Source: a virus (lineage: Duplodnaviria; Caudoviricetes). Taken from it: DNA of 64,000 bases. Shown in pieces: positions 17,599 to 53,742 of this stretch. Each line of letters opens with the position of its first letter. Position 1 is the first letter of the stretch. The position numbers were made by a program, and so were the translations under genes. Below the pieces are notes generated by a model, which was not told the DNA's origin, searched no databases, and was given only the letters and a program-made list of their open reading frames with translations. The stretch is from IMG/VR virus record IMGVR_UViG_3300032116_022045; one strand, 5' to 3'.

Positions 17599-17985
17599 TT
17601 ATATTTTAACTATAATAAAATCTCTTGCTGTAAAAACACCGTCATTAATTGTGTATTCTAATTTTATTACAGCGGTATATTCTCTTTCTTCATCTTCTGT
17701 AACTGATAAATTATCAATATTAATTGTGGGGAAATATTTTTTTACTGTTGTTGATATTTCATCTTGTAAGTCACTATATGTGATACTATCATTTGGTTCA
17801 AATATATATAATAATAAATTAGTACCAAAATCTGGATTATATAATCTCTGACCCTTTCTTGTTAATATTAAATGCATTAAATCAGCTTTAATTGCAGCAT
17901 TATCTGTTGTCGTTAAATCAAGAAAAAAACCCTCTGGACTATTCTTAAACGGAAAATTAATATTTATATATCTCTTGCTAGCCAT
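17599..17985 (-). CDS. Baseplate wedge protein gp25-like
   Basis: AIKADLMHLILTRKGQRLYNPDFGTNL...FEP is the gp25/GPW family signature. Confidence 0.9.
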   Translation of the reverse strand: MASKRYININFPFKNSPEGFFLDLTTTDNAAIKADLMHLILTRKGQRLYNPDFGTNLLLYIFEPNDSITYSDLQDEISTTVKKYFPTINIDNLSVTEDEEREYTAVIKLEYTINDGVFTARDFIIVKI

Positions 17986-18033
17986 ATATCTTTATTTTAT
18001 AAATATATTAAAACATAATTTTATATAAATAAA

Positions 18034-18061
18034 AAAACCCCTAATGTTATTTAGAGGTTTT
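18034..18061 (-). terminator. Intrinsic terminator, repeated at 18483-18510
   Basis: Minus strand reads AAAACCTCTAA-ATAACA-TTAGGGGTTTT plus a U-tract; the single mismatch is a G-U pair only on the minus strand. Confidence 0.8.
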
Positions 18062-18081
18062 ATTATTTTTGTGTGGTGGGG

Positions 18082-18399
18082 TTATTTATTAAATATTTTT
18101 TTAACTTCATCCCAAGTTTTATTCTCTAAATTTACGGCATTTATTTTAGCAATTTCATCATCTTTAATACCTATAATATTTTTTAACATTGTGATTCTAA
18201 CCCACAATGCACCATTTTCCCATTTATCATCATCGTCTTTAAAAGAATGGATTGAATTCATTCTTGGGTCGTGGAACATACCAATCTCATCTTCCTTAAT
18301 AACCCCTTCAGTAATCTTTTGTTTTCTGGTAGTTTCTGTAATAATCTTATCGATTAAATTAACCAATTCACTTTCTTTAATTCTTACAACTTTTTTCAT
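18082..18399 (-). CDS. Cassette 1: shared 33-aa leader + unique 72-aa payload (putative head-packaged protein)
   Basis: The real start is the ATG at 18399 (MKKVVRIKESELVNLIDKIITETTRKQKITEGV), downstream of the late-promoter motif; the ORF-track extension runs through promoter DNA. Confidence 0.8.
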   Translation of the reverse strand: MKKVVRIKESELVNLIDKIITETTRKQKITEGVIKEDEIGMFHDPRMNSIHSFKDDDDKWENGALWVRITMLKNIIGIKDDEIAKINAVNLENKTWDEVKKIFNK

Positions 18400-18453
18400 A
18401 TCTTTTTTATGTTTTATAATAAATACATTAAGAAAAAAAAAAACCACAAATTT
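18301..18453. repeat. Cassette head repeat copy 1 (hairpin half + late promoter + TIR + leader)
   Basis: About 153 bp direct repeat; 2 mismatches to copy 2 and 7 in the leader versus copy 3 (manual comparison). Confidence 0.95.
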
Positions 18454-18482
18454 AATTATTTTTTTATTTACTAATAAATAAA

Positions 18483-18510
18483 AAAACCCCTAATGTTATT
18501 TAGAGGTTTT
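18483..18510 (-). terminator. Intrinsic terminator, duplicate of 18034-18061
   Basis: Identical stem-loop inside an approximately 60 bp trailer repeat (18474-18536 vs 18024-18088). Confidence 0.8.
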
Positions 18511-18577
18511 ATTCTTTTTTTGTGGTAGGTTATTTAAAATAATTTTTTATTCTTAAATTTTCACTAACTTTTTGTTG

Positions 18578-19123
18578 TTAAGCTTGTGGTTTCGGTGCAT
18601 TGGGTCTTTGATTTGGATTTACCTCTCCACCCTTTCTTGTTGTTTTAGGACCTAGGGTAAGTCTGGCATAAGAATCTTTTTCTTCACCACCCCATCCGCT
18701 TCCAATCTCTATATATTCACCACTTAATCCTTTTTTTAGTTCTAGGTCTGGAAATTGCTTAGCAACTAAATTACCGTATTTTTGAGCATTAGCTTTATTA
18801 ACACCCCTAATATCAACATGTAATACATCACCATAAGCACTAATAAAAACGTTTTGATTTTTAACATCTGGACTTGTTACTTTTTTACCACCAAAATCTA
18901 GAAGTGGTGTCGCTCCTTCTTTTTTAAATAAAGAATATAATTGTTTACCGTAATTTTTTAATACTAAAGCATCTTCTTTCAAAACCATTTCTTCATTAAT
19001 AATCTGTTTTCCAGCTAAGTTTCTAACACCTTCAGTAATCTTTTGTTTTCTGGTAGTTTCTGTAATAATCTTATCGATTAAATTAACCAATTCACTTTCT
19101 TTAATTCTTACAACTTTTTTCAT
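18578..19123 (-). CDS. Cassette 2: shared 33-aa leader + unique 148-aa payload
   Basis: ATG at 19123; identical leader peptide to cassette 1, then an unrelated sequence. Confidence 0.85.
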   Translation of the reverse strand: MKKVVRIKESELVNLIDKIITETTRKQKITEGVRNLAGKQIINEEMVLKEDALVLKNYGKQLYSLFKKEGATPLLDFGGKKVTSPDVKNQNVFISAYGDVLHVDIRGVNKANAQKYGNLVAKQFPDLELKKGLSGEYIEIGSGWGGEEKDSYARLTLGPKTTRKGGEVNPNQRPNAPKPQA

Positions 19124-19199
19124 ATCTTTTTTATGTTTTATAATAAATATATTAAGAAAAAAAAAAACCACAAATTTTGTGGTTTTTTTCATTTGTGTA
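19025..19199. repeat. Cassette head repeat copy 2 with full palindrome A7CCACAAA-T-TTTGTGGT7 (19161-19189)
   Basis: Direct sequence comparison. Confidence 0.95.
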
Positions 19200-19222
19200 A
19201 TACCATTATATTCTCAATAATT

Positions 19223-20206
19223 TTACAAAATATCAGTTGATATAGAATCTTTATCAACTTCTAATTTATCGCCATTAGATTTTTTAAGTTTAAAAGTAAC
19301 TTCTTTAGTGGGTTCATCACCACTTTGAGATGTAACAATAATTGTATATTCTACACCGACTTGAAAATCTCGTTCATCCATCGACCCTTGACCATAAGAT
19401 TCTAAAGCATAAGCAAAATCTTCAGAATTTACTTCACCTAAATTATCTGGAATAATAACAGATTGAGTTCCATCTTGTCCTCTATGATAATATTCTTCTT
19501 CATTAATCATTTGTCTAATAGTTTTATTTGATTCTGTAATAATTTTATCGATTAAATTAACCAAATCACTTTCTTTAATTCTTACAACTTTTTTATTTTC
19601 ATTTATTTCTTTAGAATCAGGTATAATAACAGCATATCTTCCACCCCATTCTGATGTTCTTGGTATATTTGGGTCTCCTGGGAAAGCGGATAATACAATA
19701 TATTCATTAGGTATTGCAGTGCCTTTTTCATCTTTTTTTGGTCTAACGATTATTGTTAATTCATCTGTTCTAAATTGGTTTATTGGTGCTGTTGTTTTAA
19801 TTGCTGGTACTTTTATTTTATTAGGACCTTCAATTTTCTCAACTTCAGTTTCTTGAGCATTAGGTAATTTTTTAGCATCTTCTATTGGTAGTACCAAATT
19901 GTAACCAATATTTGGTACTTTAATATTTACTGTTCCAGTTGTATTAGCAATTTTATCAATATCATTTCTTTTATTTAATGTGTCTTGAACTATATTTAAA
20001 ACATCATCAATAGATTTAGCAAAAATAGAACCTTGACCAACTTTACCATGTACATCCTCTAATTTATCTTTTAATGACCAACCGCTAACATCTTTTGTTG
20101 GTATTGTAACGCCTTCAGTAATTTTTCTTTTTCTAGTAGTTTCTGTGATAATTTTATCGATTAAATTAACCAATTCACTTTCTTTAATTCTTACAACTTT
20201 TTTCAT
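19223..20206 (-). CDS. Cassette 3: leader + domain A + internal leader copy + domain B (two-payload fusion)
   Basis: ATG at 20206; internal KKVVRIKESDLVNLIDKIITE at 19532-19594. Confidence 0.85.
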   Translation of the reverse strand: MKKVVRIKESELVNLIDKIITETTRKRKITEGVTIPTKDVSGWSLKDKLEDVHGKVGQGSIFAKSIDDVLNIVQDTLNKRNDIDKIANTTGTVNIKVPNIGYNLVLPIEDAKKLPNAQETEVEKIEGPNKIKVPAIKTTAPINQFRTDELTIIVRPKKDEKGTAIPNEYIVLSAFPGDPNIPRTSEWGGRYAVIIPDSKEINENKKVVRIKESDLVNLIDKIITESNKTIRQMINEEEYYHRGQDGTQSVIIPDNLGEVNSEDFAYALESYGQGSMDERDFQVGVEYTIIVTSQSGDEPTKEVTFKLKKSNGDKLEVDKDSISTDIL

Positions 20207-20281
20207 ATCTTTTTTATGTTTTATAATAAATACATTAAGAAAAAAAAAAACCACAAATATTTGTGGTTTTTTGTTTGTGTT
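20108..20281. repeat. Cassette head repeat copy 3 with perfect 28-bp palindrome (20245-20272), also the nrdA terminator
   Basis: A6CCACAAATATTTGTGGT6 followed on the minus strand by a U-run, directly downstream of the nrdA-C stop. Confidence 0.95.
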
Positions 20282-20294
20282 ATTTATTATTATT

Positions 20295-21389
20295 TTAACT
20301 TGAACAACCAAAACATTCAAATTGACTGTCGGTTGGTTTTTTGGTAACGGTTATTTGTGTTGAAGCTAATTTTGTATTAGTGTCAAGCTTTGATTTTGTT
20401 CTAGTATAATAAACACCAGTTTTTAATCCACCTTTCCAAGCATACATTAATGCACTGGCAATTTTACCATATTTAGCATCAGAATGATAAACATTTAATG
20501 ACTGTGATTGGTCAACATATTTGTTTCTAATTATAGCTAAATCTAATAAAACTCTTTGTGGTATTTCCCATACATCTTTATACCTATACCTAACCTCTTC
20601 AGGTATTTCAGTAATGTTCTGTATACTTCCCTTATTCTTAATAACCTTATCAATCATTTCAACATCCCAAAGATTATTTTCAAGCAATTCATTAACAAGA
20701 TATTTGTTGATAACCAAAAACTCACCTTGACCAACACGCCTTGTAAATAAATTTGATGTTACAGGTTCAAATGATTCAAAAACACCTAATAAAATCGCAC
20801 TGGTAGCTGTAGGCATTAATCCTAATAACAAACTGTTATACAATGGTATTGGTTCTCCATTTGGTTTTGGTGACCATCCTTCAATATATGTTTCACCCTT
20901 TGAATATAAACTACCTTCCCAAGCTGGATAATTAACACCAAGTTCTTCAGCAATTGTCATTGATTCAATAATTGCTGATTTATACATTGTTTCAAATATC
21001 TTATGTGTCCATTCTTTAGCTTCTTCACTTTCAAAAGATATTTTTTTCTTTGCAAAGAAATCAGCTAAACCAGCTACACCAATTGCTAATGCTCTTTGTT
21101 CTAAACCAGCAGATTCGCTCCATTCATCACTCCATTTATTTTTATTTATAACCTCATTTAATCCTCTAACCAATATCTTTGTTGATGTTTCTATTGTATC
21201 AATATCATCATGTTCAGATAAATTAATTGATGCTAATGTGCATTGAGATGTTTTTCTTGGTGAGCTGGCCTGGAAAATTTCTGCACAGTTGTGGATAAGT
21301 ATTCCATTTGCAAAAAAATTATTATTACCATCTATCGTTAAATCATATACTGGTAATGTTGTCTCGATTTTTCTTATTTTAATCCCCAT
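20295..21389 (-). CDS. nrdA: Ribonucleotide reductase class Ia alpha, C-terminal half, fused to split intein C-part
   Basis: Starts with a 34-aa IntC (…VYDLTIDGNNNFFANGILIHN), then CAEI (radical Cys), CTLASINL, GLMPTATS, GLKTGVYY and terminal CFGCSS. Confidence 0.95.
   Translation of the reverse strand: MGIKIRKIETTLPVYDLTIDGNNNFFANGILIHNCAEIFQASSPRKTSQCTLASINLSEHDDIDTIETSTKILVRGLNEVINKNKWSDEWSESAGLEQRALAIGVAGLADFFAKKKISFESEEAKEWTHKIFETMYKSAIIESMTIAEELGVNYPAWEGSLYSKGETYIEGWSPKPNGEPIPLYNSLLLGLMPTATSAILLGVFESFEPVTSNLFTRRVGQGEFLVINKYLVNELLENNLWDVEMIDKVIKNKGSIQNITEIPEEVRYRYKDVWEIPQRVLLDLAIIRNKYVDQSQSLNVYHSDAKYGKIASALMYAWKGGLKTGVYYTRTKSKLDTNTKLASTQITVTKKPTDSQFECFGCSS
21288..21389 (-). mobile_element. 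Split intein C-fragment (34 aa)
   Basis: Block F (VYDLTIDG-NNFFANG) and terminal His-Asn followed by +1 Cys. Confidence 0.95.
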
Positions 21390-21390
21390 A

Positions 21391-22428
21391 TTATTTTATT
21401 ATTTCATTTATGTTTGTTAATACTTTTTTTAGGTATACGTATCTTATTTTATTTTCATTACAATATTTTTTAGCGGCATTAATTTTCATTTCTTCATTTA
21501 ATTTTCCTTTTACACCCCTAATAAACCCTTTAATCTCTAATAATATTTTTTCACCATTATATTCGATTAAAAAATCTGGTAAGTATAACGTACCGTTTTC
21601 CTTTTCAATATAAAAAGGTTCATAACTATATATTATATTATTTAGTTCTAAAAATTCTATTGTTTTAAATTCCCAAGAACTTCTATACCTTATTATACTT
21701 TTATTTAAACAATTCTTTACTTTAATAAAACCAGTTTTAAAGAATTTTGTTGACCCCATATTTTCATTCCTATTCATGCTAATAGTTGATATTATTGACA
21801 TCATTTTTGTGTGTATAGTATTTATATTTTCATCACATATATTAATATCATTAATTTCATTCTTAAAGTTTAAAAATATCGTTTCATTTAAATATTTATT
21901 AGATTTTAAAAAATTTTTAACCTTTTTTATCTTATATTGTTTTGATTTTCTTAAATCTGAAATTGTTAATCCATATAATTTATTTATTTCATCTTCCGTT
22001 TTTAATGTTGTATCTATGTTTTTATTATTTAAAAATTTTATTTTAAAATTAATACTAGAGTTTTGAATTTTTTTTGTTTCTCTAAACGAATCGCCTCTAT
22101 TAATACCCTTCATTTTTATTTTCATCTTTTCAGAATGTTCTGGTCTTAATTTACCTTTACTATGATAACCCTTAAAAAAATTAACGCAGTCATCAGGCCA
22201 TGCAAATCTACCGTTCTTCCATATTTTTAATATGTTGTTATTTGAGTAACAATTCTTAAAATTATCAAATGTTAATACGTTATTTAAATATAAGTTTTTC
22301 AAAGCTTTGTGTTTTTGATATACATCTTTTATTATTTTATCAATATATTTAATTAATTCTGAATCAAATAACGTTATAAAATCTTTGTTATTAATTAATT
22401 CATTTATTTTTGTGTGTTTTTTTATCAT
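21391..22428 (-). CDS. Free-standing homing endonuclease, TnsA-N/PD-(D/E)xK-like, between the nrdA halves
   Basis: C-terminal YRSSWE...YEPF...YLPDFLIE...LLEIKG; NUMOD3-like RPEHSEKMKIKMKG; basic Lys/Asn-rich composition. Confidence 0.8.
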   Translation of the reverse strand: MIKKHTKINELINNKDFITLFDSELIKYIDKIIKDVYQKHKALKNLYLNNVLTFDNFKNCYSNNNILKIWKNGRFAWPDDCVNFFKGYHSKGKLRPEHSEKMKIKMKGINRGDSFRETKKIQNSSINFKIKFLNNKNIDTTLKTEDEINKLYGLTISDLRKSKQYKIKKVKNFLKSNKYLNETIFLNFKNEINDINICDENINTIHTKMMSIISTISMNRNENMGSTKFFKTGFIKVKNCLNKSIIRYRSSWEFKTIEFLELNNIIYSYEPFYIEKENGTLYLPDFLIEYNGEKILLEIKGFIRGVKGKLNEEMKINAAKKYCNENKIRYVYLKKVLTNINEIIK

Positions 22429-22487: not shown

Positions 22488-23969
22488 TTATTGTAATATT
22501 TTTAACATATCGTTTTCAATTAAGTCTTTAGCCATAACATACCCTCTATTAATTGTATATATTTTATGTTCTGGTGTGCATATTAGTTTTTTATTTGTTT
22601 TATCATCTATTATTTCTAAAACTTCTGCATCTTTACTAGTCATAGCTGATGCTAATAGCTGTTTGTATTCTATAATATCGTTTTCAATATTATAAGATTT
22701 AACTAATATATTCTTATTGACTTTAAATAATTCATTTAATGTTTTGATATCAACCTTATGTTCTTCATTATCTAAAATTATGTCTATTATTGAATCTTCA
22801 GATATGCATAGATTACTCATTTTAATTGGACCAATATTTGATTGCATATTTCTTTTGTTAGCGTTGTCTTTATACATAACATAAGGTCTGCCACTCTCAA
22901 CTTGAGATTTAATAATAGAGTCAAATATTTCTTTAGGATTTACTTTCTTACCTATACCTAGATTAACAGCTTTTTCATACTCTTCATTAAATTCAGTACC
23001 ATATAAATCATATAATGGTCTTAATCCAGCTTTTTTAATATCATTAGGACAAAATAAATACCAATCACCACCAGTTTCTAATCTCTCCATAAACAAATCA
23101 TTTATTACAACAGCTGTAAATAAATCACGTGTTCTTAATTGTTCATCCCCAATTGGTAATGTTAATTCTAAGAAATCAATAATATCTTTATGCCAAACAG
23201 ATAAATATAAAGCGCAACTACCAGAACGAGAACCTTGTTTATAAAATCTCATTTTTGATTGTACCATGTCAGCAAATCTAACAATACCACCAGCATTACC
23301 TTGAAAAGATTCTACAACACTTTCTTTGCTTCTTAATGGGTCAACCAATAACCCAATACCAGAACCTTCTTTAGATGCTGCTGATATCATCGTTAATGTG
23401 TTTTCTATTTCTTGAAAGCTATCCCCTTCTAAATGTGTTAAGTTACAAGAAATCATACCACCTCGTTTATCAATACCAGCATTGGTATAAATTGGTGTGG
23501 CAAAATTAATTCTTTTTAAATTAAGCTCATTTATTAAATTATTTCTTAACTCTTCATTATCACCATGTAAATGATTTGCAACCCTTTCATACATACATGA
23601 TGGTAATTCAATAGGGTTTTTATTAGAATCTCTTTTAGAATATTTAGTTAAAAAAGTTGTTGCAGCAAAAAAATCATATGTTAAATCAACTGGTTTTAAT
23701 TCTTTACCAATTAATTTAGATTGTCTACTTAATAAAATCCTACCACCAAGTAATGAATAATCTGGGTGTTGTATTATCTTGTCAGCCGCTTTAAACGCTA
23801 TTATCTCGTCAATCTCAGTTGTTGTTATGTTATCCGTTATCAATGGTATAACCTCTTGAAATAATGAATCAGAATCAATTTTTAATCCATTTGATTGACC
23901 TTTTATTCTACTTAGAATCTTATTTGGCATAAATGCCTGTGTCGTTTTATCTCTCTTTAATATTCTCAT
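22488..23969 (-). CDS. nrdA: Ribonucleotide reductase class Ia alpha, N-terminal half, fused to split intein N-part
   Basis: ATP-cone-like N-terminus, FATPIYTNAG, ISCNL, QGSRSGS, ESGRPY, KMSNL, then intein block A CISEDS and block B CTPEHKIYT. Confidence 0.95.
   Translation of the reverse strand: MRILKRDKTTQAFMPNKILSRIKGQSNGLKIDSDSLFQEVIPLITDNITTTEIDEIIAFKAADKIIQHPDYSLLGGRILLSRQSKLIGKELKPVDLTYDFFAATTFLTKYSKRDSNKNPIELPSCMYERVANHLHGDNEELRNNLINELNLKRINFATPIYTNAGIDKRGGMISCNLTHLEGDSFQEIENTLTMISAASKEGSGIGLLVDPLRSKESVVESFQGNAGGIVRFADMVQSKMRFYKQGSRSGSCALYLSVWHKDIIDFLELTLPIGDEQLRTRDLFTAVVINDLFMERLETGGDWYLFCPNDIKKAGLRPLYDLYGTEFNEEYEKAVNLGIGKKVNPKEIFDSIIKSQVESGRPYVMYKDNANKRNMQSNIGPIKMSNLCISEDSIIDIILDNEEHKVDIKTLNELFKVNKNILVKSYNIENDIIEYKQLLASAMTSKDAEVLEIIDDKTNKKLICTPEHKIYTINRGYVMAKDLIENDMLKILQ
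22491..22808 (-). mobile_element. Split intein N-fragment (106 aa)
   Basis: Begins with Cys (22808-22806); TPEH block B; ends RGYVMAKDLIENDMLKILQ*. Confidence 0.95.
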
Positions 23970-24718: not shown

Positions 24719-24802
24719 ATGTCAGAATCAGAAATTATGTTATCTAGAGGTATAAATAAGATATATGATTGTGGTACTGTTAAATGGGTAATTAATTACT
24801 AA
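24719..24802 (+). pseudogene. Remnant 3' end of a phage homing endonuclease
   Basis: Translates MSESEIMLSRGINKIYDCGTVKWVINY*, matching the C-terminal E-EIM-x2-RG-x2-[RK]IYDCG-x2-KW motif I recall from Hef-like phage endonucleases; no upstream body. Confidence 0.55.
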
Positions 24803-25685
24803 ACGTGTCAAAAATTTTTCTATGGAACTCATCGTAGGTTAAATCTGGTGATATTGTTACAATAGGGTTAATTTTTATTTCTAAATTTATTGGTAGTTCT
24901 TTATTTAATATTTTTGCTGCCATATATCTATGATGACCATCTTCTATATAAAACCCTGGTTTTTTATTTTTAATTTTTAAAAATGAGACATCAATTGGTT
25001 CTGATAAGTTTATTTTTTTAGCCCATTCTTTTGGTGATAAACCGCTTTTTTCTATTTCATATACAACATTTTCCAAATCGGCTAACCATTTTAATTTTAA
25101 TTCTTTTGGTTTTAAGGTTTTAATATCTTCTTCAGAAAAACCATGTGCTAATCTATCTAATAGTTCTATTGATAAACCACCACTTCTAAGTAATTGTTCT
25201 GATGTTTCATATTTTGATAATTCTTTTTTTAAATCATTAATGTATAAATCATTTTTAAATTTAAAAACATCATTATATAATGTGTTTTCAGTTATTAGTT
25301 CGTCAAAAATAACATCCCATTTGGTTAGAGGTATCCACCCATATTTTGTTTTTATTTCTAATTTATTTACTGGGATATTTTCAAATGTTATATATTCATC
25401 ACCTTTATTATTTTTTATTCTGTTAGACAATTCAAAATCATCAGTTAAAATTGTTCTTAATATTACCATTCTATCTTTACCACCTTTAGACATGGCATAA
25501 TATTTTGCATAATCAATATCGTTTGTGAAGCTAATTGAAGGTTTTATTTCACCAACATTATTTGTTTTAATATAACCATCTTTTTTTATATTGTTTGCAG
25601 CACCTTTACTAGTCCCATGATAAAGATAAATCTGTTCATTATTATTGGTAATTTCCCTTAATAGTTTTCTTATTAGTTGTTTCAT
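24792..25685 (-). CDS. ADP-ribosyltransferase-like + ParB/Srx-like fusion with MKxLIxKLLRE leader
   Basis: LYHGT...SISFTNDIDYAKYYA...DEY (ART fold, His-type); C-terminal IEDGHHRYMAAK (ParB/Srx). Confidence 0.7.
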   Translation of the reverse strand: MKQLIRKLLREITNNNEQIYLYHGTSKGAANNIKKDGYIKTNNVGEIKPSISFTNDIDYAKYYAMSKGGKDRMVILRTILTDDFELSNRIKNNKGDEYITFENIPVNKLEIKTKYGWIPLTKWDVIFDELITENTLYNDVFKFKNDLYINDLKKELSKYETSEQLLRSGGLSIELLDRLAHGFSEEDIKTLKPKELKLKWLADLENVVYEIEKSGLSPKEWAKKINLSEPIDVSFLKIKNKKPGFYIEDGHHRYMAAKILNKELPINLEIKINPIVTISPDLTYDEFHRKIFDTFSN

Positions 25686-25700
25686 TTATCTTTTTTTTTA

Positions 25701-26210
25701 TTAAAATAAATCAATATAATATTTTTGGGTGAATTCTTCTATTTTAAATAGGGTTCTGTTCATATCATTTATTATTCTATCTAATTCGTTTTTTGGTATT
25801 TCTTCATTATTTTTTACCATTATTTCTTTATTATAAGATAGGGTTTCATTTAAACCTTTCATCGCAATAATAAAAACTCTAAATGTTAAATCATCCATTT
25901 CTTTTGGTTGCATTGTATGAAATTGATTTTTTATAATAAATTTATGAAACGTATTATCATTTATTTTATGTGGGTAATAAATGATTTCAGATGAGATGTT
26001 TAACTGTGGGAATTTTATTATTTCATCACCCATCATCATTGTTACGTTTTCATTATAAACTACTCTTTGTGCTTCTAATCTTTTTTCGTCTCTAGGGTGT
26101 TTAAATATATTATATTCTTTAAGAAAAGGGATTCTTTTAATTAATATATCTTTAATATTATTGTTTGATTCTAAGTTTTCTCTTAGTAATTTTTTAATTA
26201 ATTTTTTCAT
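25701..26210 (-). CDS. Hypothetical protein with MKKLIKKLLRE leader
   Basis: Start moved to the ATG at 26210, just after the upstream stop. Confidence 0.75.
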   Translation of the reverse strand: MKKLIKKLLRENLESNNNIKDILIKRIPFLKEYNIFKHPRDEKRLEAQRVVYNENVTMMMGDEIIKFPQLNISSEIIYYPHKINDNTFHKFIIKNQFHTMQPKEMDDLTFRVFIIAMKGLNETLSYNKEIMVKNNEEIPKNELDRIINDMNRTLFKIEEFTQKYYIDLF

Positions 26211-26214
26211 GTTA

Positions 26215-26790
26215 TTAATGGTCTCCGACAATAGCGTTAATTGGTTTTTTTAATTCTTCACCATTTATTTTAATTATTTTCACATTAGTACCTTTATTTA
26301 GCGCACATTCCCATTGGTCTTCACCATACCAAATAAATGAATGAAACCCATAAATCCAATCTATATCTTTTGGGTTAATAATAGCTTCTAATATATAAGG
26401 TTCACCCGTTTTCATCATTTTTATATTTGGGTGTCGCTCTCCGTATGCCCCAACGCCATTTTCATCAAATGACCAATGCTTACCTATATCTTTTATATCT
26501 AAATCTTTTATAGAATTTAATTTAATTAATCTATAAATTGTTATTTTATTACTGTTTTTTAATTCATTATATTTATCAACATATAGTTCTATTCTTTCTA
26601 TATAATTATCTCTAGAGTATTCTGCTTGTATATCATTTTTATCTTCTTCATACGCATCAAAAGATTCAGCAACGTCTTCTATATTTTCATAAGCGTATTT
26701 TGTCGCTGTTTCGTAGTTAGATAAAAATGAATCATATTCATTATATTCATTTAAATTTTCTCTTAATATTTTTTTAATTAAATTTTTCAC
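26215..26790 (-). CDS. Putative R-S-E type ADP-ribosyltransferase with MKNLIKKILRE leader
   Basis: GTG start; TIYRLI...IGKHWSFD...YILEAII...EDQWECAL gives the R, S and Q-x-E motifs in the right order. Confidence 0.55.
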   Translation of the reverse strand: MKNLIKKILRENLNEYNEYDSFLSNYETATKYAYENIEDVAESFDAYEEDKNDIQAEYSRDNYIERIELYVDKYNELKNSNKITIYRLIKLNSIKDLDIKDIGKHWSFDENGVGAYGERHPNIKMMKTGEPYILEAIINPKDIDWIYGFHSFIWYGEDQWECALNKGTNVKIIKINGEELKKPINAIVGDH

Positions 26791-51249: not shown

Positions 51250-53742
51250 TTAGTATTTTATTAATTTCTTTATCTTTTCTATTTCATTTTCTATTAAAAC
51301 TTCTTTTGGAATAACTTTCCTTTCAAAAATTTGTGGTCGATTAGCCTGTTGGTTATTGTTACCACCAGCTTGTTGTTGTGGTTGTTGTTGTTTTTGTTGT
51401 TGTTGTTGATTATTACCACCTTGTGTTTTTAATTTATATAGATATTGAAAAAGACCAATTAATGTTTTTAAGAAATTAGCCAAATTCTTTTTAAATGCTG
51501 TTCTACTTTGAGCATCTTTAGAAAATGATTTATTAGGCATTGAAGCACCATAACCAGCTTCAACCTCTGCAATTTTATTTATATTACCACCACCTAAACC
51601 TTTCATTTTACCAACCATACTATTATCTTTAGTATATTGATTATTAGGGTCTAAATTCTTTATTTTACCTGAGAAAGCGTTACTAACTGTTTTATAATCC
51701 GTAGAATAAACTGTATTTAAAGTTTCTTTTATAAATGTTAAAAGTTGTCTCATATCTTGTTCATTGTCAGGATTAGCATTAGTTAAAGCTTCAAAATTTG
51801 TCATCATAATAGGGTTTGAATCTAATTGATTTAAGAAACCCTTAATAACATTATCATTTGTTTTAGCTAAACTTTTCCTTAAAGTATTTCTAACATACTC
51901 TATTCTTTTTAACAACTCTTCAAATTTTTGTAATTGGTCAACTTTTAAATTTTTTGATAAATAAGTAATAACTCTTTTATCTTTAAAAAATTTGCCTTCG
52001 TATAACATTTCTTCACCTTCTCTTACATAATTTTGATTAGCAAAAAATCTTTCTCTACCACTTTGTGTTTGCCCACCAGCTTGTGCTCTATTACCACCTT
52101 TCATTATTTGACCACCTTGATATGTTCTACCACCTAAACTATCTCTAGCTGAAGAACTTTGAGATTTAGAAGGTGATTTAGCACCAGTACCCATTGTACC
52201 TCTATTATTAACTATAAATTGAAAAAGACTTTTTAAATCATTAAATAAACCATCTGTAGAACCACTATCTTGTGATATTTTTTTCGGGTCTTGAGCTTGA
52301 GCTACAGAAATTGGTGGTTCATCTGGTTTTATAACACCATCCCCACCTTCAATATTTCTAATTGATTGATATAACGCATTAAGTGTTGCAGCTCTTGAAG
52401 ATTTTTGGCCTTTCATTCGCATAAGTTTAACCAAAGCACCAGTAGCTATTAAACCAACACCAATAGGTCCTAATAAAGCACCTAAACCTTTTGCAACAAG
52501 ATAACCAGCACCAACCTTAAGACCAGTTTTCATAACAATTGTTGGTACCATTTTTACTATAGCATTGACAACAAGACCTTGTAAACCACCACCAGTTTGT
52601 GTTACCAATAAATCACCAACACTTTTACCTGTTCCAGCCCAACTACCTTGGAACATTTCACCTAAATTTTTACCATAACTATTAGGGTTTTTAGCAATTT
52701 CTTCAAGAACTTTTTTAGCGTTATCAGGGTCCATAAATATACCACCTTTAGCTGATAATGCATCAATACCAGCTTGTAAATTACCACCACCAAGTTGTTT
52801 TACAGCATTTACAAAATCTTGTGGTGAAGAATTTGGACTTAAGTTTAATCCCATAGCCCTATTCATTATTTGTGTCATACCTTCACCTGGTTTTATTGAC
52901 GCAAAAATTGAAGATTTTTCTTTTACTATTTGTCTAACATATTCAATAGAAGGGTTTTTGGTTATTTCAAGAAATAAACTTTTAAACCATTCTGTATTAA
53001 CTAACCAACTAAAAGCACCTAAAGAAGAACCAACACCAGCTAATGTTAAAGGTAATCTATTTGATTTAAGAGTGTCCATTCTTGTACTAGCAAAATCATC
53101 ACCACCACCTCTTTTTGCAGCTAAACTTTGTCTAACGGCTTTATCATCATAAACCTTACCAGCATCTGATGGTTCTTGTTCAGATAAACCAAATTCTTCA
53201 TCTATTTGAGCCATTTGCTCATCAGTTATATCATACTCTTCATTCATTAAATCTTGTTCAGATTCATTAACCACTGAATATACTGCTGTTAAATCAATAT
53301 CTAAGAATTTTTTAACGTATTCTCTTAAATCATTTATAACACCATTAGCTGCATCAACAGATAGATATCCTTCTTCATTAGGATTTTTTGTTGTAGCATC
53401 AATAATAGAATCATAAACAGCTGCTATTGACATAACAGTTGATAAAAATTGTTGTGGGTCTTTATTATTTGGGAATTGTGGGTTTTCTTCTTTAATTTTA
53501 TCGTTAAGATTTTTAATTAATGTGTTAGATGCTTTATCAATAATTTGTTGTATCTTAGCACCAGCTTCTTGGTCAATTTTACCTCTACCAAAAATTTTAC
53601 CACCAACTTTATATCTACCTAATTTAGACAAACCGTATTTAATTGTATCCATTAAACCTTCATCCAAATGTTTACCTTCATTTAATAAGAAATTTTCTAA
53701 CATTTCTTTTTGTTCTTTTGTAATCTTAATTCTATTTTTCAT
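51250..53742 (-). CDS. Large putative ejection/internal head protein with Gly-rich hydrophobic helices
   Basis: 830 aa; N-terminal KITKEQ...LLNEG; hydrophobic LPLTLAGVGSSLGAFSWLV and GAGYLVAKGLGALLGPIGVGLIATGALV; C-terminal LIENEIEKIKKLIKY; late motif at 53765. Confidence 0.55.
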   Translation of the reverse strand: MKNRIKITKEQKEMLENFLLNEGKHLDEGLMDTIKYGLSKLGRYKVGGKIFGRGKIDQEAGAKIQQIIDKASNTLIKNLNDKIKEENPQFPNNKDPQQFLSTVMSIAAVYDSIIDATTKNPNEEGYLSVDAANGVINDLREYVKKFLDIDLTAVYSVVNESEQDLMNEEYDITDEQMAQIDEEFGLSEQEPSDAGKVYDDKAVRQSLAAKRGGGDDFASTRMDTLKSNRLPLTLAGVGSSLGAFSWLVNTEWFKSLFLEITKNPSIEYVRQIVKEKSSIFASIKPGEGMTQIMNRAMGLNLSPNSSPQDFVNAVKQLGGGNLQAGIDALSAKGGIFMDPDNAKKVLEEIAKNPNSYGKNLGEMFQGSWAGTGKSVGDLLVTQTGGGLQGLVVNAIVKMVPTIVMKTGLKVGAGYLVAKGLGALLGPIGVGLIATGALVKLMRMKGQKSSRAATLNALYQSIRNIEGGDGVIKPDEPPISVAQAQDPKKISQDSGSTDGLFNDLKSLFQFIVNNRGTMGTGAKSPSKSQSSSARDSLGGRTYQGGQIMKGGNRAQAGGQTQSGRERFFANQNYVREGEEMLYEGKFFKDKRVITYLSKNLKVDQLQKFEELLKRIEYVRNTLRKSLAKTNDNVIKGFLNQLDSNPIMMTNFEALTNANPDNEQDMRQLLTFIKETLNTVYSTDYKTVSNAFSGKIKNLDPNNQYTKDNSMVGKMKGLGGGNINKIAEVEAGYGASMPNKSFSKDAQSRTAFKKNLANFLKTLIGLFQYLYKLKTQGGNNQQQQQKQQQPQQQAGGNNNQQANRPQIFERKVIPKEVLIENEIEKIKKLIKY

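Follow-up and report, generated by a model that had tools for sequence, protein, structure and literature searches.

How can proteins that otherwise have nothing in common come to begin with the same peptide, and what does that peptide do? The question is raised by three consecutive open reading frames (ORFs), ORF1 to ORF3, in a 64,000-nucleotide (nt) stretch of viral DNA (Duplodnaviria; Caudoviricetes; IMG/VR record IMGVR_UViG_3300032116_022045), referred to below as the window. The virus is an uncultured, AT-rich freshwater phage of ca. 290 kb, and the window has a GC content of 28%. All genes of the region lie on the minus strand, in the order C-terminal piece of nrdA, ORF3, ORF2, ORF1, a gp25-like gene and a gp6-like gene (Table 1). 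ORF1 to ORF3 each start with a repeated segment, the head, which reaches into the coding region and supplies an N-terminal leader; an individual payload follows. An array of exchangeable cassettes with turnover driven by recombination is well supported, and leaves little room for doubt. The leader is best explained as a capsid-targeting propeptide, removed by a protease, on exchangeable cargo; we infer the cleavage and the packaging, and regard this explanation as probable rather than secure.

A repeat search found three heads of 166 nt, those of ORF2 and ORF3 being 96% and 92% identical to that of ORF1, and a fourth copy (61%) at 19498–19663. A 26-mer of the leader occurs four times in the window against 0 expected, and a hidden Markov model of the leader found no copies in the window beyond these four. 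The head is composed of a CCACAAA/TTTGTGG hairpin with a T run, a (T/G)TATTTAT box, an A-rich stretch and the leader MKKVVRIKESELVNLIDKIITETTRK(Q/R)KITEGV. The first-pass annotation of this DNA had reported three heads with a near-identical leader in front of unrelated payloads, and this stands – no pair of the ORF1–ORF3 payloads had a BLASTP match with E < 0.25, and none of the three ORFs had a Pfam or PHROGs match above threshold. A recount also returned the differences between the copies that it had given. Heads 1 and 2 differ at 2 nt (one in the 45 nt before the ATG, none in the first 93 coding nt, one in a Gly codon), and heads 3 and 1 differ at 7 leader nt, with a single amino acid change, Q to R. 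Overlooked at that time was the fourth leader copy, which lies in frame inside the 327-amino-acid (aa) ORF3 (aa 205–236) and keeps the peptide without a promoter of its own. The length of 33 codons given for the leader was too short: the conserved part is usually 44 aa, with a range of 31–44, and ends in a fourth [IL]xE motif.

The head hairpin with its T run scores as a terminator on either strand. There are six terminator-like hairpins in 3.3 kb, compared with 0.7 expected, with folding z values of −2.8 to −4.4; the hairpin of head 3 has −12.3 kcal/mol and z −4.35. A hairpin had been claimed for every head, which is correct for heads 2 and 3; head 1 has the right half only of CCACAAA/TTTGTGG, and a terminator of a second type (CCTCTAAAT...TAGGGG) is found between the halves. 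This type 2 terminator (z −3.8 in copy 1) is part of a 78-nt direct repeat, the second copy of which is at 18474–18551, and the two copies bracket the ORF1 cassette. A conserved 3' tail module with a terminator is a frequent end of cassettes. Its C-terminal peptide, QQKVSENLRIKNYFK, is translated in homologues of ORF2, and in the window it is an untranslated remnant past the ORF2 stop. That stop is TAA where the homologues read CAA (Gln), and the next 15 codons still encode the tail. The nonsense codon is common to a relative, L002 (described below), and comparable tail remnants are found behind other cassettes.

The box (T/G)TATTTAT is located 27–28 nt upstream of the ATG of the leader genes, and TATATTTAT is located 21–32 nt upstream of the gp6-like and gp25-like genes and of genes for proteins of 830, 312 and 279 aa. 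The ORF2 box, at −27/−28, is identical to that of the baseplate genes, and those of ORF1 and ORF3 are a one-base variant. Because the box is common to the cassettes and the baseplate and structural genes, the cassettes are probably expressed late, together with the virion genes. The earlier claim of a late-promoter motif is thus retained in part – a promoter-like box is present about 27 nt before the ATG, but it is (T/G)TATTTAT and not the TATAAATA of T4. Sites resembling sigma-70 promoters are at chance level (21 versus 22.9 expected).

A metagenome contig (L001, 190 kb) is 100% identical to the window across 12.4 kb. The stretch is present in 20 public runs, which come from 14 studies and for the most part are labelled freshwater. 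In relatives L002 and L003/L004, the flanks are very similar to those of the window (97.2% identical on the nrdA side, 93–97% in gp25/gp6) but the cassettes are different. The L002 array consists of ORFs of 37, 150, 181 and 181 aa, the last of which is the ORF2 orthologue (95.7% identical), and the L003 array of ORFs of 37, 150, 130, 280 and 173 aa. All of these except the 37-aa and 280-aa ones start with the leader, and one payload only is common to the window and the L002/L003 sets. Breaks in homology between L002 and the window, at 20280, 19194, 18464 and 18103, coincide with the hairpins and with the point where the 78-nt repeat begins. The identity of the nrdA flank in L002 and L003 runs to 20280, where homology ends; the orthologous cassette of L002 is homologous from 19194 to 18464; and the 449-nt unit between the 78-nt repeat copies, which is the ORF1 cassette, is exactly absent from L002.

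Joints of the same kind were found in metagenome assemblies. A contig of run X18 has 18079 joined to 18528, likewise without the 449-nt ORF1 unit. Contigs of run X16 have 19189 joined to 20284, which removes the ORF3 cassette, and have 18590 and 18975 bridged by other sequence, so that the payload is swapped and the leader and tail are kept. Several of these joints are short-sided (<30) or were found at 88% likeness, and they corroborate cassette replacement rather than prove it.

The heads also bear marks of exchange with each other. The three heads of the window are 98–100% identical over the 45 nt that precede the ATG. The head in front of the ORF2 orthologue of L002 differs from them, with an insertion or deletion, and matches its own L002 neighbours at 96–98%. 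This likeness within a genome reads as the signature of gene conversion among heads. Comparison of the genomes shows that payloads are added, deleted and replaced by homologous recombination between repeated heads and tails, which also keeps the heads of each genome alike. The first-pass annotation had proposed such swapping, and the relatives bear it out: the array is not invariant, its payloads vary in number and content between closely similar flanks, and the breakpoints are at the repeated modules. An integron-like reading was dropped, because the exchange is explained by homology and there is no integrase among the annotated ORFs of the window; the repeats are terminator hairpins and coding sequence.

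Arrays of leader genes are not confined to this site. In relative L007, a second array lies between sheath and baseplate hub (L007:10001–11508) and comprises three leader genes. The counterpart of that site in the window (51250–53742) has the 830-aa ORF, the protein of which is rich in [IL]xE at its N-terminus and in Gln at its C-terminus, and contains hydrophobic segments rich in glycine.

The leader was found in one phage lineage only, and the payloads are not so restricted. Searches of 5.8 billion protein clusters returned 19 leader clusters, of 100–317 aa; together with the ORFs of the window and the related loci, these have at least 18 unrelated payloads behind a leader that is 80–100% identical. 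A DNA search of the region and a tblastn search of the leader found no match in 50,697 phage records, and degenerate leader patterns gave no confirmed match in the IMG/VR and JGI metagenome contigs, collections that seem to be without this lineage. The differences between leader copies are mainly synonymous changes or V/I swaps, with synonymous changes outnumbering replacements. This supports the view, already taken in the first-pass annotation, that conservation acts on the leader peptide, beyond the DNA.

T4 gp21 recognises (L/I)xE and cuts after the Glu. The leader has such sites at residues 7–9, 20–22 and 29–31 (IKE, ITE and I(T/S)E), as had been pointed out, and there is more: in all 18 leader proteins (18/18), a further [IL]xE is found exactly where conservation stops. 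The spacers before this junction motif vary (RNLAGKQIIKE, RNLNKFNKKVIKE, RKLTSKKINE, RNLNE). The first domain of ORF3, domain A, has [ILVM]xE just before it in 119 of 119 occurrences, whether N-terminal or internal and behind many upstream sequences, and the E is invariant. Within ORF3, seven of the eight [IL]xE motifs are in the 71 leader and linker residues and none is in the 165 residues of domain A (P 1.5e-4). The background in window proteins is 0.011 [IL]xE per residue, and the density in the leader is far higher (P about 1e-3 per protein). Other leader families, encoded by different DNA, have the same [IL]xE layout.

An AlphaFold2 (AF2) model of ORF3 had a predicted local distance difference test score (pLDDT) of 83, with both domains confident and the leader and linker low. 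Disordered stretches at aa 24–30 and 231–234 coincide with the junction motifs. The leader was modelled in ORF3 and ORF2 as a strand (residues 4–8) and a helix (9–25), at low confidence and detached from the payload, and its hydrophobic residues have a heptad-like pattern.

The payloads circulate independently of this leader. The ORF2 payload also follows at least four leaders of other types (MATKKITLNELRSIVKQIIKEE, MKQLNEQFLRMQKLAGIITES, MKQQINEIRRMQFLAGLINES and MKSTELRQLIRESINEYIRD). Domains A and B of ORF3 have more than 237 homologues, in which they are single, in either order, or joined with further modules, among them an HD domain. Many polar residues of domain A are invariant. Its structure matches (VIA-align) have Z ≤ 6.6, with toxins of the RelE/ParE/CdiA type recurring; this is below the trusted level and serves as a lead only. 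Foldseek found nothing at E ≤ 0.001 for ORF3 against PDB and viral structures or for ORF2 against PDB, and matches in AlphaFold DB clusters were to uncharacterised proteins only. Several other payloads have glycine-rich hydrophobic segments. By analogy with the T4 internal proteins, the payloads may act early in the host.

The genome has the genes that such a system would use. Contig k141_1999487 (L016; 293,501 bp) is 100% identical to the window end over an overlap of 5,364 nt, and carries a head module in T4 gene order ca. 47.5 kb past the window end: terminase, an intein-bearing T4-type portal, four small ORFs, a gp21-type Peptidase_S77 (PF03420, E 3.6e-25; 237 aa, L028:10001–10711), a scaffold-like protein and a Gp23-family capsid protein (PF07068, E 3.4e-72). 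The scaffold-like protein has 407 aa, is acidic and has many [IL]xE. The N-terminus of the capsid protein is gp23-like (BLASTP E 2e-6), with LYE and LTE shortly before the conserved core. S77 protease genes are also present in the two nearest cultured relatives. The phage is remote from those in culture – its gp6-like protein has at most 29% identity to anything among the 50,697 phage records, the nearest being from a 484-kb uncultured phage, Microcystis phage Mel-JY01 and Flavobacterium phage immuto. Small neighbours of the head genes (L028:289–13960, about 44–54 kb past the window end) open with [IL]xE-rich leaders such as MKKLILTETERKAILAEKERIIIE, which matches the leader family of some domain-A homologues (P0052–P0058).

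Taken as cargo with a removable leader, the locus would be a hypervariable cargo locus of a myovirus of the wider T4 superfamily. A cassette would comprise a hairpin terminator, the promoter box common to baseplate genes, a leader of 31–44 aa and a payload. The leader would draw its protein into the prohead scaffold core, where the S77 gp21-type protease would cut after the Glu of [IL]xE, at three sites within the leader and one at the junction with the payload. This cut would free the payload in the head, and ejection with the DNA would follow. ORF3, with a second leader copy between its domains, would be resolved likewise into two cargo proteins. There is a precedent in T4, in which the internal proteins, Alt and gp24 have targeting sequences of 10–19 aa that are removed by gp21, and in which foreign proteins fused to these sequences are packaged and injected (PMC9026906). 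The internal proteins of T-even phages are a diverse set with the capsid targeting sequence as their sole common part (PMC3012670). In phage SPN3US, long propeptides with several protease motifs are found, and diverged paralogues have identical N-termini (PMC5694885).

Several observations weigh against cargo with a removable leader. The leader is three to four times as long as the T4 targeting sequences and shows no evident sequence homology to them; comparison by eye with the N-termini of T4 gp24 and Alt shows no similarity, the peptides being too short for statistics. The cassette genes sit in the tail and baseplate module, not in the head module. The residues of [IL]xE are common in an AT-rich proteome, and the recurrence of the motif is partly due to shared descent. 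In the BLASTP alignment, the LTE of the capsid protein is not exactly aligned to LTE65 of T4. The ORF2 payload is weakly like tail-terminator and neck proteins (Z 8–9.4; Foldseek probability 0.85 to lambda gpU), a resemblance that would fit a structural role in the tail or neck. Cleavage, packaging and ejection are steps that we infer from sequence.

Some of the same observations feed the main rival, in which the leader is not cleaved and is a virion anchor that docks accessory proteins on the surface of the baseplate, neck, tail or capsid. The leader would then resemble the conserved adaptor domains with which interchangeable receptor-binding or decoration proteins begin, and the payloads would be surface or structural modules. 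The arrays between nrdA and gp25 and, in L007, between sheath and hub are where such proteins might be encoded, the promoter box is that of baseplate genes, the tail-terminator likeness of the ORF2 payload fits, and the strand and amphipathic helix of the AF2 models are of a type used for strand-augmentation docking. However, an anchor does not predict an invariant [IL]xE at each junction despite variable spacers, and leaves unexplained why leader copies serve as internal linkers between freely ordered domains; the glycine-rich hydrophobic segments of payloads are also more typical of ejected or membrane-active proteins. An anchor is considered unlikely. The location in the tail module could also mean that the leader is a signal for loading the tail tube or baseplate with cargo for a first wave of injection. 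N-terminal packaging signals are a feature of extracellular contractile injection systems. Hydrophobic, glycine-rich segments reminiscent of tape-measure proteins occur in some payloads and also in the window's 830-aa protein, which sits where L007 has its three leader genes. Such a signal would leave the protease-type motifs unexplained, and to our knowledge it has no phage precedent; it is judged very improbable.

It could also be that the proteins are made late and never enter the virion, with the leader acting as an oligomerisation, regulatory or localisation helix and the [IL]xE motifs arising from a composition rich in I, L, K, N and E. The heptad-like pattern and the AT-biased proteome would be in keeping with this, and packaging of the cargo is itself a prediction. 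It is improbable given that the motif density in the leader is far over background, that the motif is fixed at domain borders in every one of the domain-A cases, that the leader is limited to one lineage, which has an S77 protease, and that the promoter box is common with virion genes. Hardly credible is a peptide carried as a passenger of a head conserved for nucleic-acid reasons, as promoter, translation start or recombination substrate. The very high nucleotide identity of heads within a genome, brought about by gene conversion, would be expected in that case, but distant copies differ mostly by synonymous or V/I changes, the internal copy keeps the peptide where there is no promoter, and leader families with other DNA keep the [IL]xE layout.

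The nearest described system is that of the T-even internal proteins (IPI, IPII, IPIII and Alt), which are likewise unrelated small proteins with a common N-terminal peptide ending in (L/I)xE, in genomes with a gp21-type protease, a scaffold and a gp23-type capsid protein. Passages in Arbiol et al. 2010 (PMC2839356), with reference to Repoila et al. 1994, place PeSL-like elements of promoter and stem-loop at two hypervariable T-even internal-protein loci, and suggest that these elements cause the plasticity of the loci. As there, the array differs strongly among close relatives, with promoter and stem-loop elements thought to drive the shuffling (PMC2839356, in those passages; PMC3012670; PMC9026906). 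The T-even leaders differ in having 10–19 aa and one site, in place of 31–44 aa and three to four sites, and here the leader is also reused in frame as an interdomain linker. Early promoters are described for the T-even elements, whereas the box here is that of structural genes. The array further differs in its conserved 3' tail and tail-module location, and belongs to a distant 290-kb freshwater virus, with a gp6-like protein ≤29% identical to that of any cultured phage. The first-pass annotation had named the combination of a shuffling element and a targeting signal as one not known to be described; that claim falls, because T-even loci with both are described in PMC3012670 and in the passages cited from PMC2839356, so the combination is not new in principle. 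What is new here is the long multi-site leader, the polyprotein cargo and the distant jumbo phage.

In PeSL elements (Arbiol 2010; Comeau 2014), a stem-loop, promoter, ribosome-binding region and start codon are repeated around small ORFan genes, and breakpoints of insertion, deletion and replacement are at the elements. The likeness to PeSL noted earlier extends to this layout and to the breakpoints but not to the promoters, which in PeSL are sigma-70-like and early. PeSL elements also end at the start codon, whereas the repeat here extends 100–130 nt into the coding region. SPN3US and phiKZ share long multi-motif N-terminal propeptides, a protease related to T4 gp21 and a cargo number that varies between phages, but their motifs are (A/S/G)xE and their cargo consists of paralogue families, in place of unrelated payloads in exchangeable cassettes (PMC5694885).

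Polyvalent proteins are another point of comparison, differing from the small chains found here, which have one to four domains and leader-like linkers. This polyprotein cargo of phages and conjugative elements, the subject of work by Iyer et al. in 2017, is said to combine several unrelated effector domains per chain; it is reportedly very large, often with peptidase domains of its own, and regarded as delivered along with the DNA, in some cases with processing.

If the leader is a capsid-targeting propeptide, the T4 internal-protein principle – one address tag, exchangeable injected proteins and fast turnover – would reach abundant uncultured freshwater jumbo phages, with two features undescribed in T4: a leader that is long and has multiple sites, and polyprotein cargo split at leader-like linkers. 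Virion-delivered effectors could then be predicted in metagenomes by a simple rule that combines an S77 gene in the genome with a lineage-specific leader and [IL]xE where domains meet. Anti-defence and host-takeover proteins are likely to be found among such effectors, and the rule yields at least 18 candidate cargo proteins. A wider proposal is offered tentatively, as possible and still doubtful: leaders and leader-like linkers ending in [IL]xE might be a combinatorial grammar in many aquatic T4-superfamily phages. Conserved cargo domains (A, B, HD and membrane-active segments) would be shuffled freely in their order behind several lineage-specific leader families, made singly or as polyproteins, loaded into the prohead, cut by S77 and injected as an effector cocktail, and this locus would be one hot spot of a larger undescribed repertoire.

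Table 1. Coordinates of features in and around the cassette array of the window.
Feature	Coordinates	Strand	Match
C-terminal piece of split nrdA (intein C part and C-extein)	20295–21389	−	PHROG 84, E 1.5e-62
Head 3: hairpin terminator (20245–20272), GTATTTAT box at −27, A-rich translation start region, leader (20108–20206)	20107–20272	−	
ORF3, 327 aa	19223–20206	−	
ORF3 leader, aa 1–31			
ORF3 domain A, aa 32–196	19619–20113		
ORF3 internal leader copy/linker, aa 197–236	19499–19618		
ORF3 domain B, aa 237–327			
Head 2: hairpin terminator (19161–19189), TATATTTAT box, leader	19024–19189	−	
ORF2, 181 aa	18578–19123	−	
ORF2 parts: leader of 44–50 aa ending INE/LKE; alpha/beta payload, aa ~51–160; disordered Pro/Gln-rich tail (AF2)			
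3' tail module behind ORF2: QQKVSENLRIKNYFK remnant (18530–18577), terminator type 2 (18483–18510)	18474–18577	−	
Head 1: half hairpin, GTATTTAT box, leader	18300–18465	−	
ORF1, 105 aa: 37-aa leader ending IKE, 68-aa payload	18082–18399	−	
78-nt repeat copy 1 with terminator type 2 (18034–18061), then TATATTTAT box of gp25-like gene	18025–18102	−	
gp25-like baseplate wedge gene	17599–17985	−	PHROG 261, E 1.3e-22; PF04965
Three adjacent genes with second, short leader family MKxLI[KR]K[LI]LRE	24792–26790	−	

The three adjacent genes at the end of Table 1 are unrelated to each other and start with MKQLIRKLLRE, MKKLIKKLLRE and MKNLIKKILRE; T4 gp24 starts with MAKINELLRE, which is alike in style only. 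The first of them has a possible ADP-ribosyltransferase-like part and a ParB-like DGHHR motif. A leader of this short type is also found on the 280-aa cassette within the L003 array. Among proteins from aquatic metagenomes (P0040–P0158), many have a conserved basic C-terminal helix (for example VNEALAKFRKNKK and LDEIVDRVLAKIRN) and the linker motif xRMQ(K/Q)LAGI(I/L)xE recurs in many; both could be further sorting or processing signals.

The ribonucleotide reductase gene (nrdA) next to the array is fractured. Its N-terminal ORF (22488–23969) ends in an intein N part, its C-terminal ORF opens with an intein C part ending in ...HN|C, and the two are separated by a free-standing endonuclease-like ORF (21391–22428). 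This arrangement, which is kept in relatives, resembles a split intein whose homing endonuclease has a gene of its own. On the other side of the array, L002 has a 588-aa gene on the opposite strand between the gp25-like and gp6-like genes (L002:9830–11596), with weak Mom-like and DUF7487 matches, which is absent from the window. The first 19 kb past the window end (L015/L016) encode a DNA polymerase B, a T4 gp13-like neck protein, an intein-bearing SNF2 helicase and a Peptidase_S74 fibre protein. An island of ca. 17 kb with glycosyltransferases and methyltransferases (L018, L021) differs in content between relatives.

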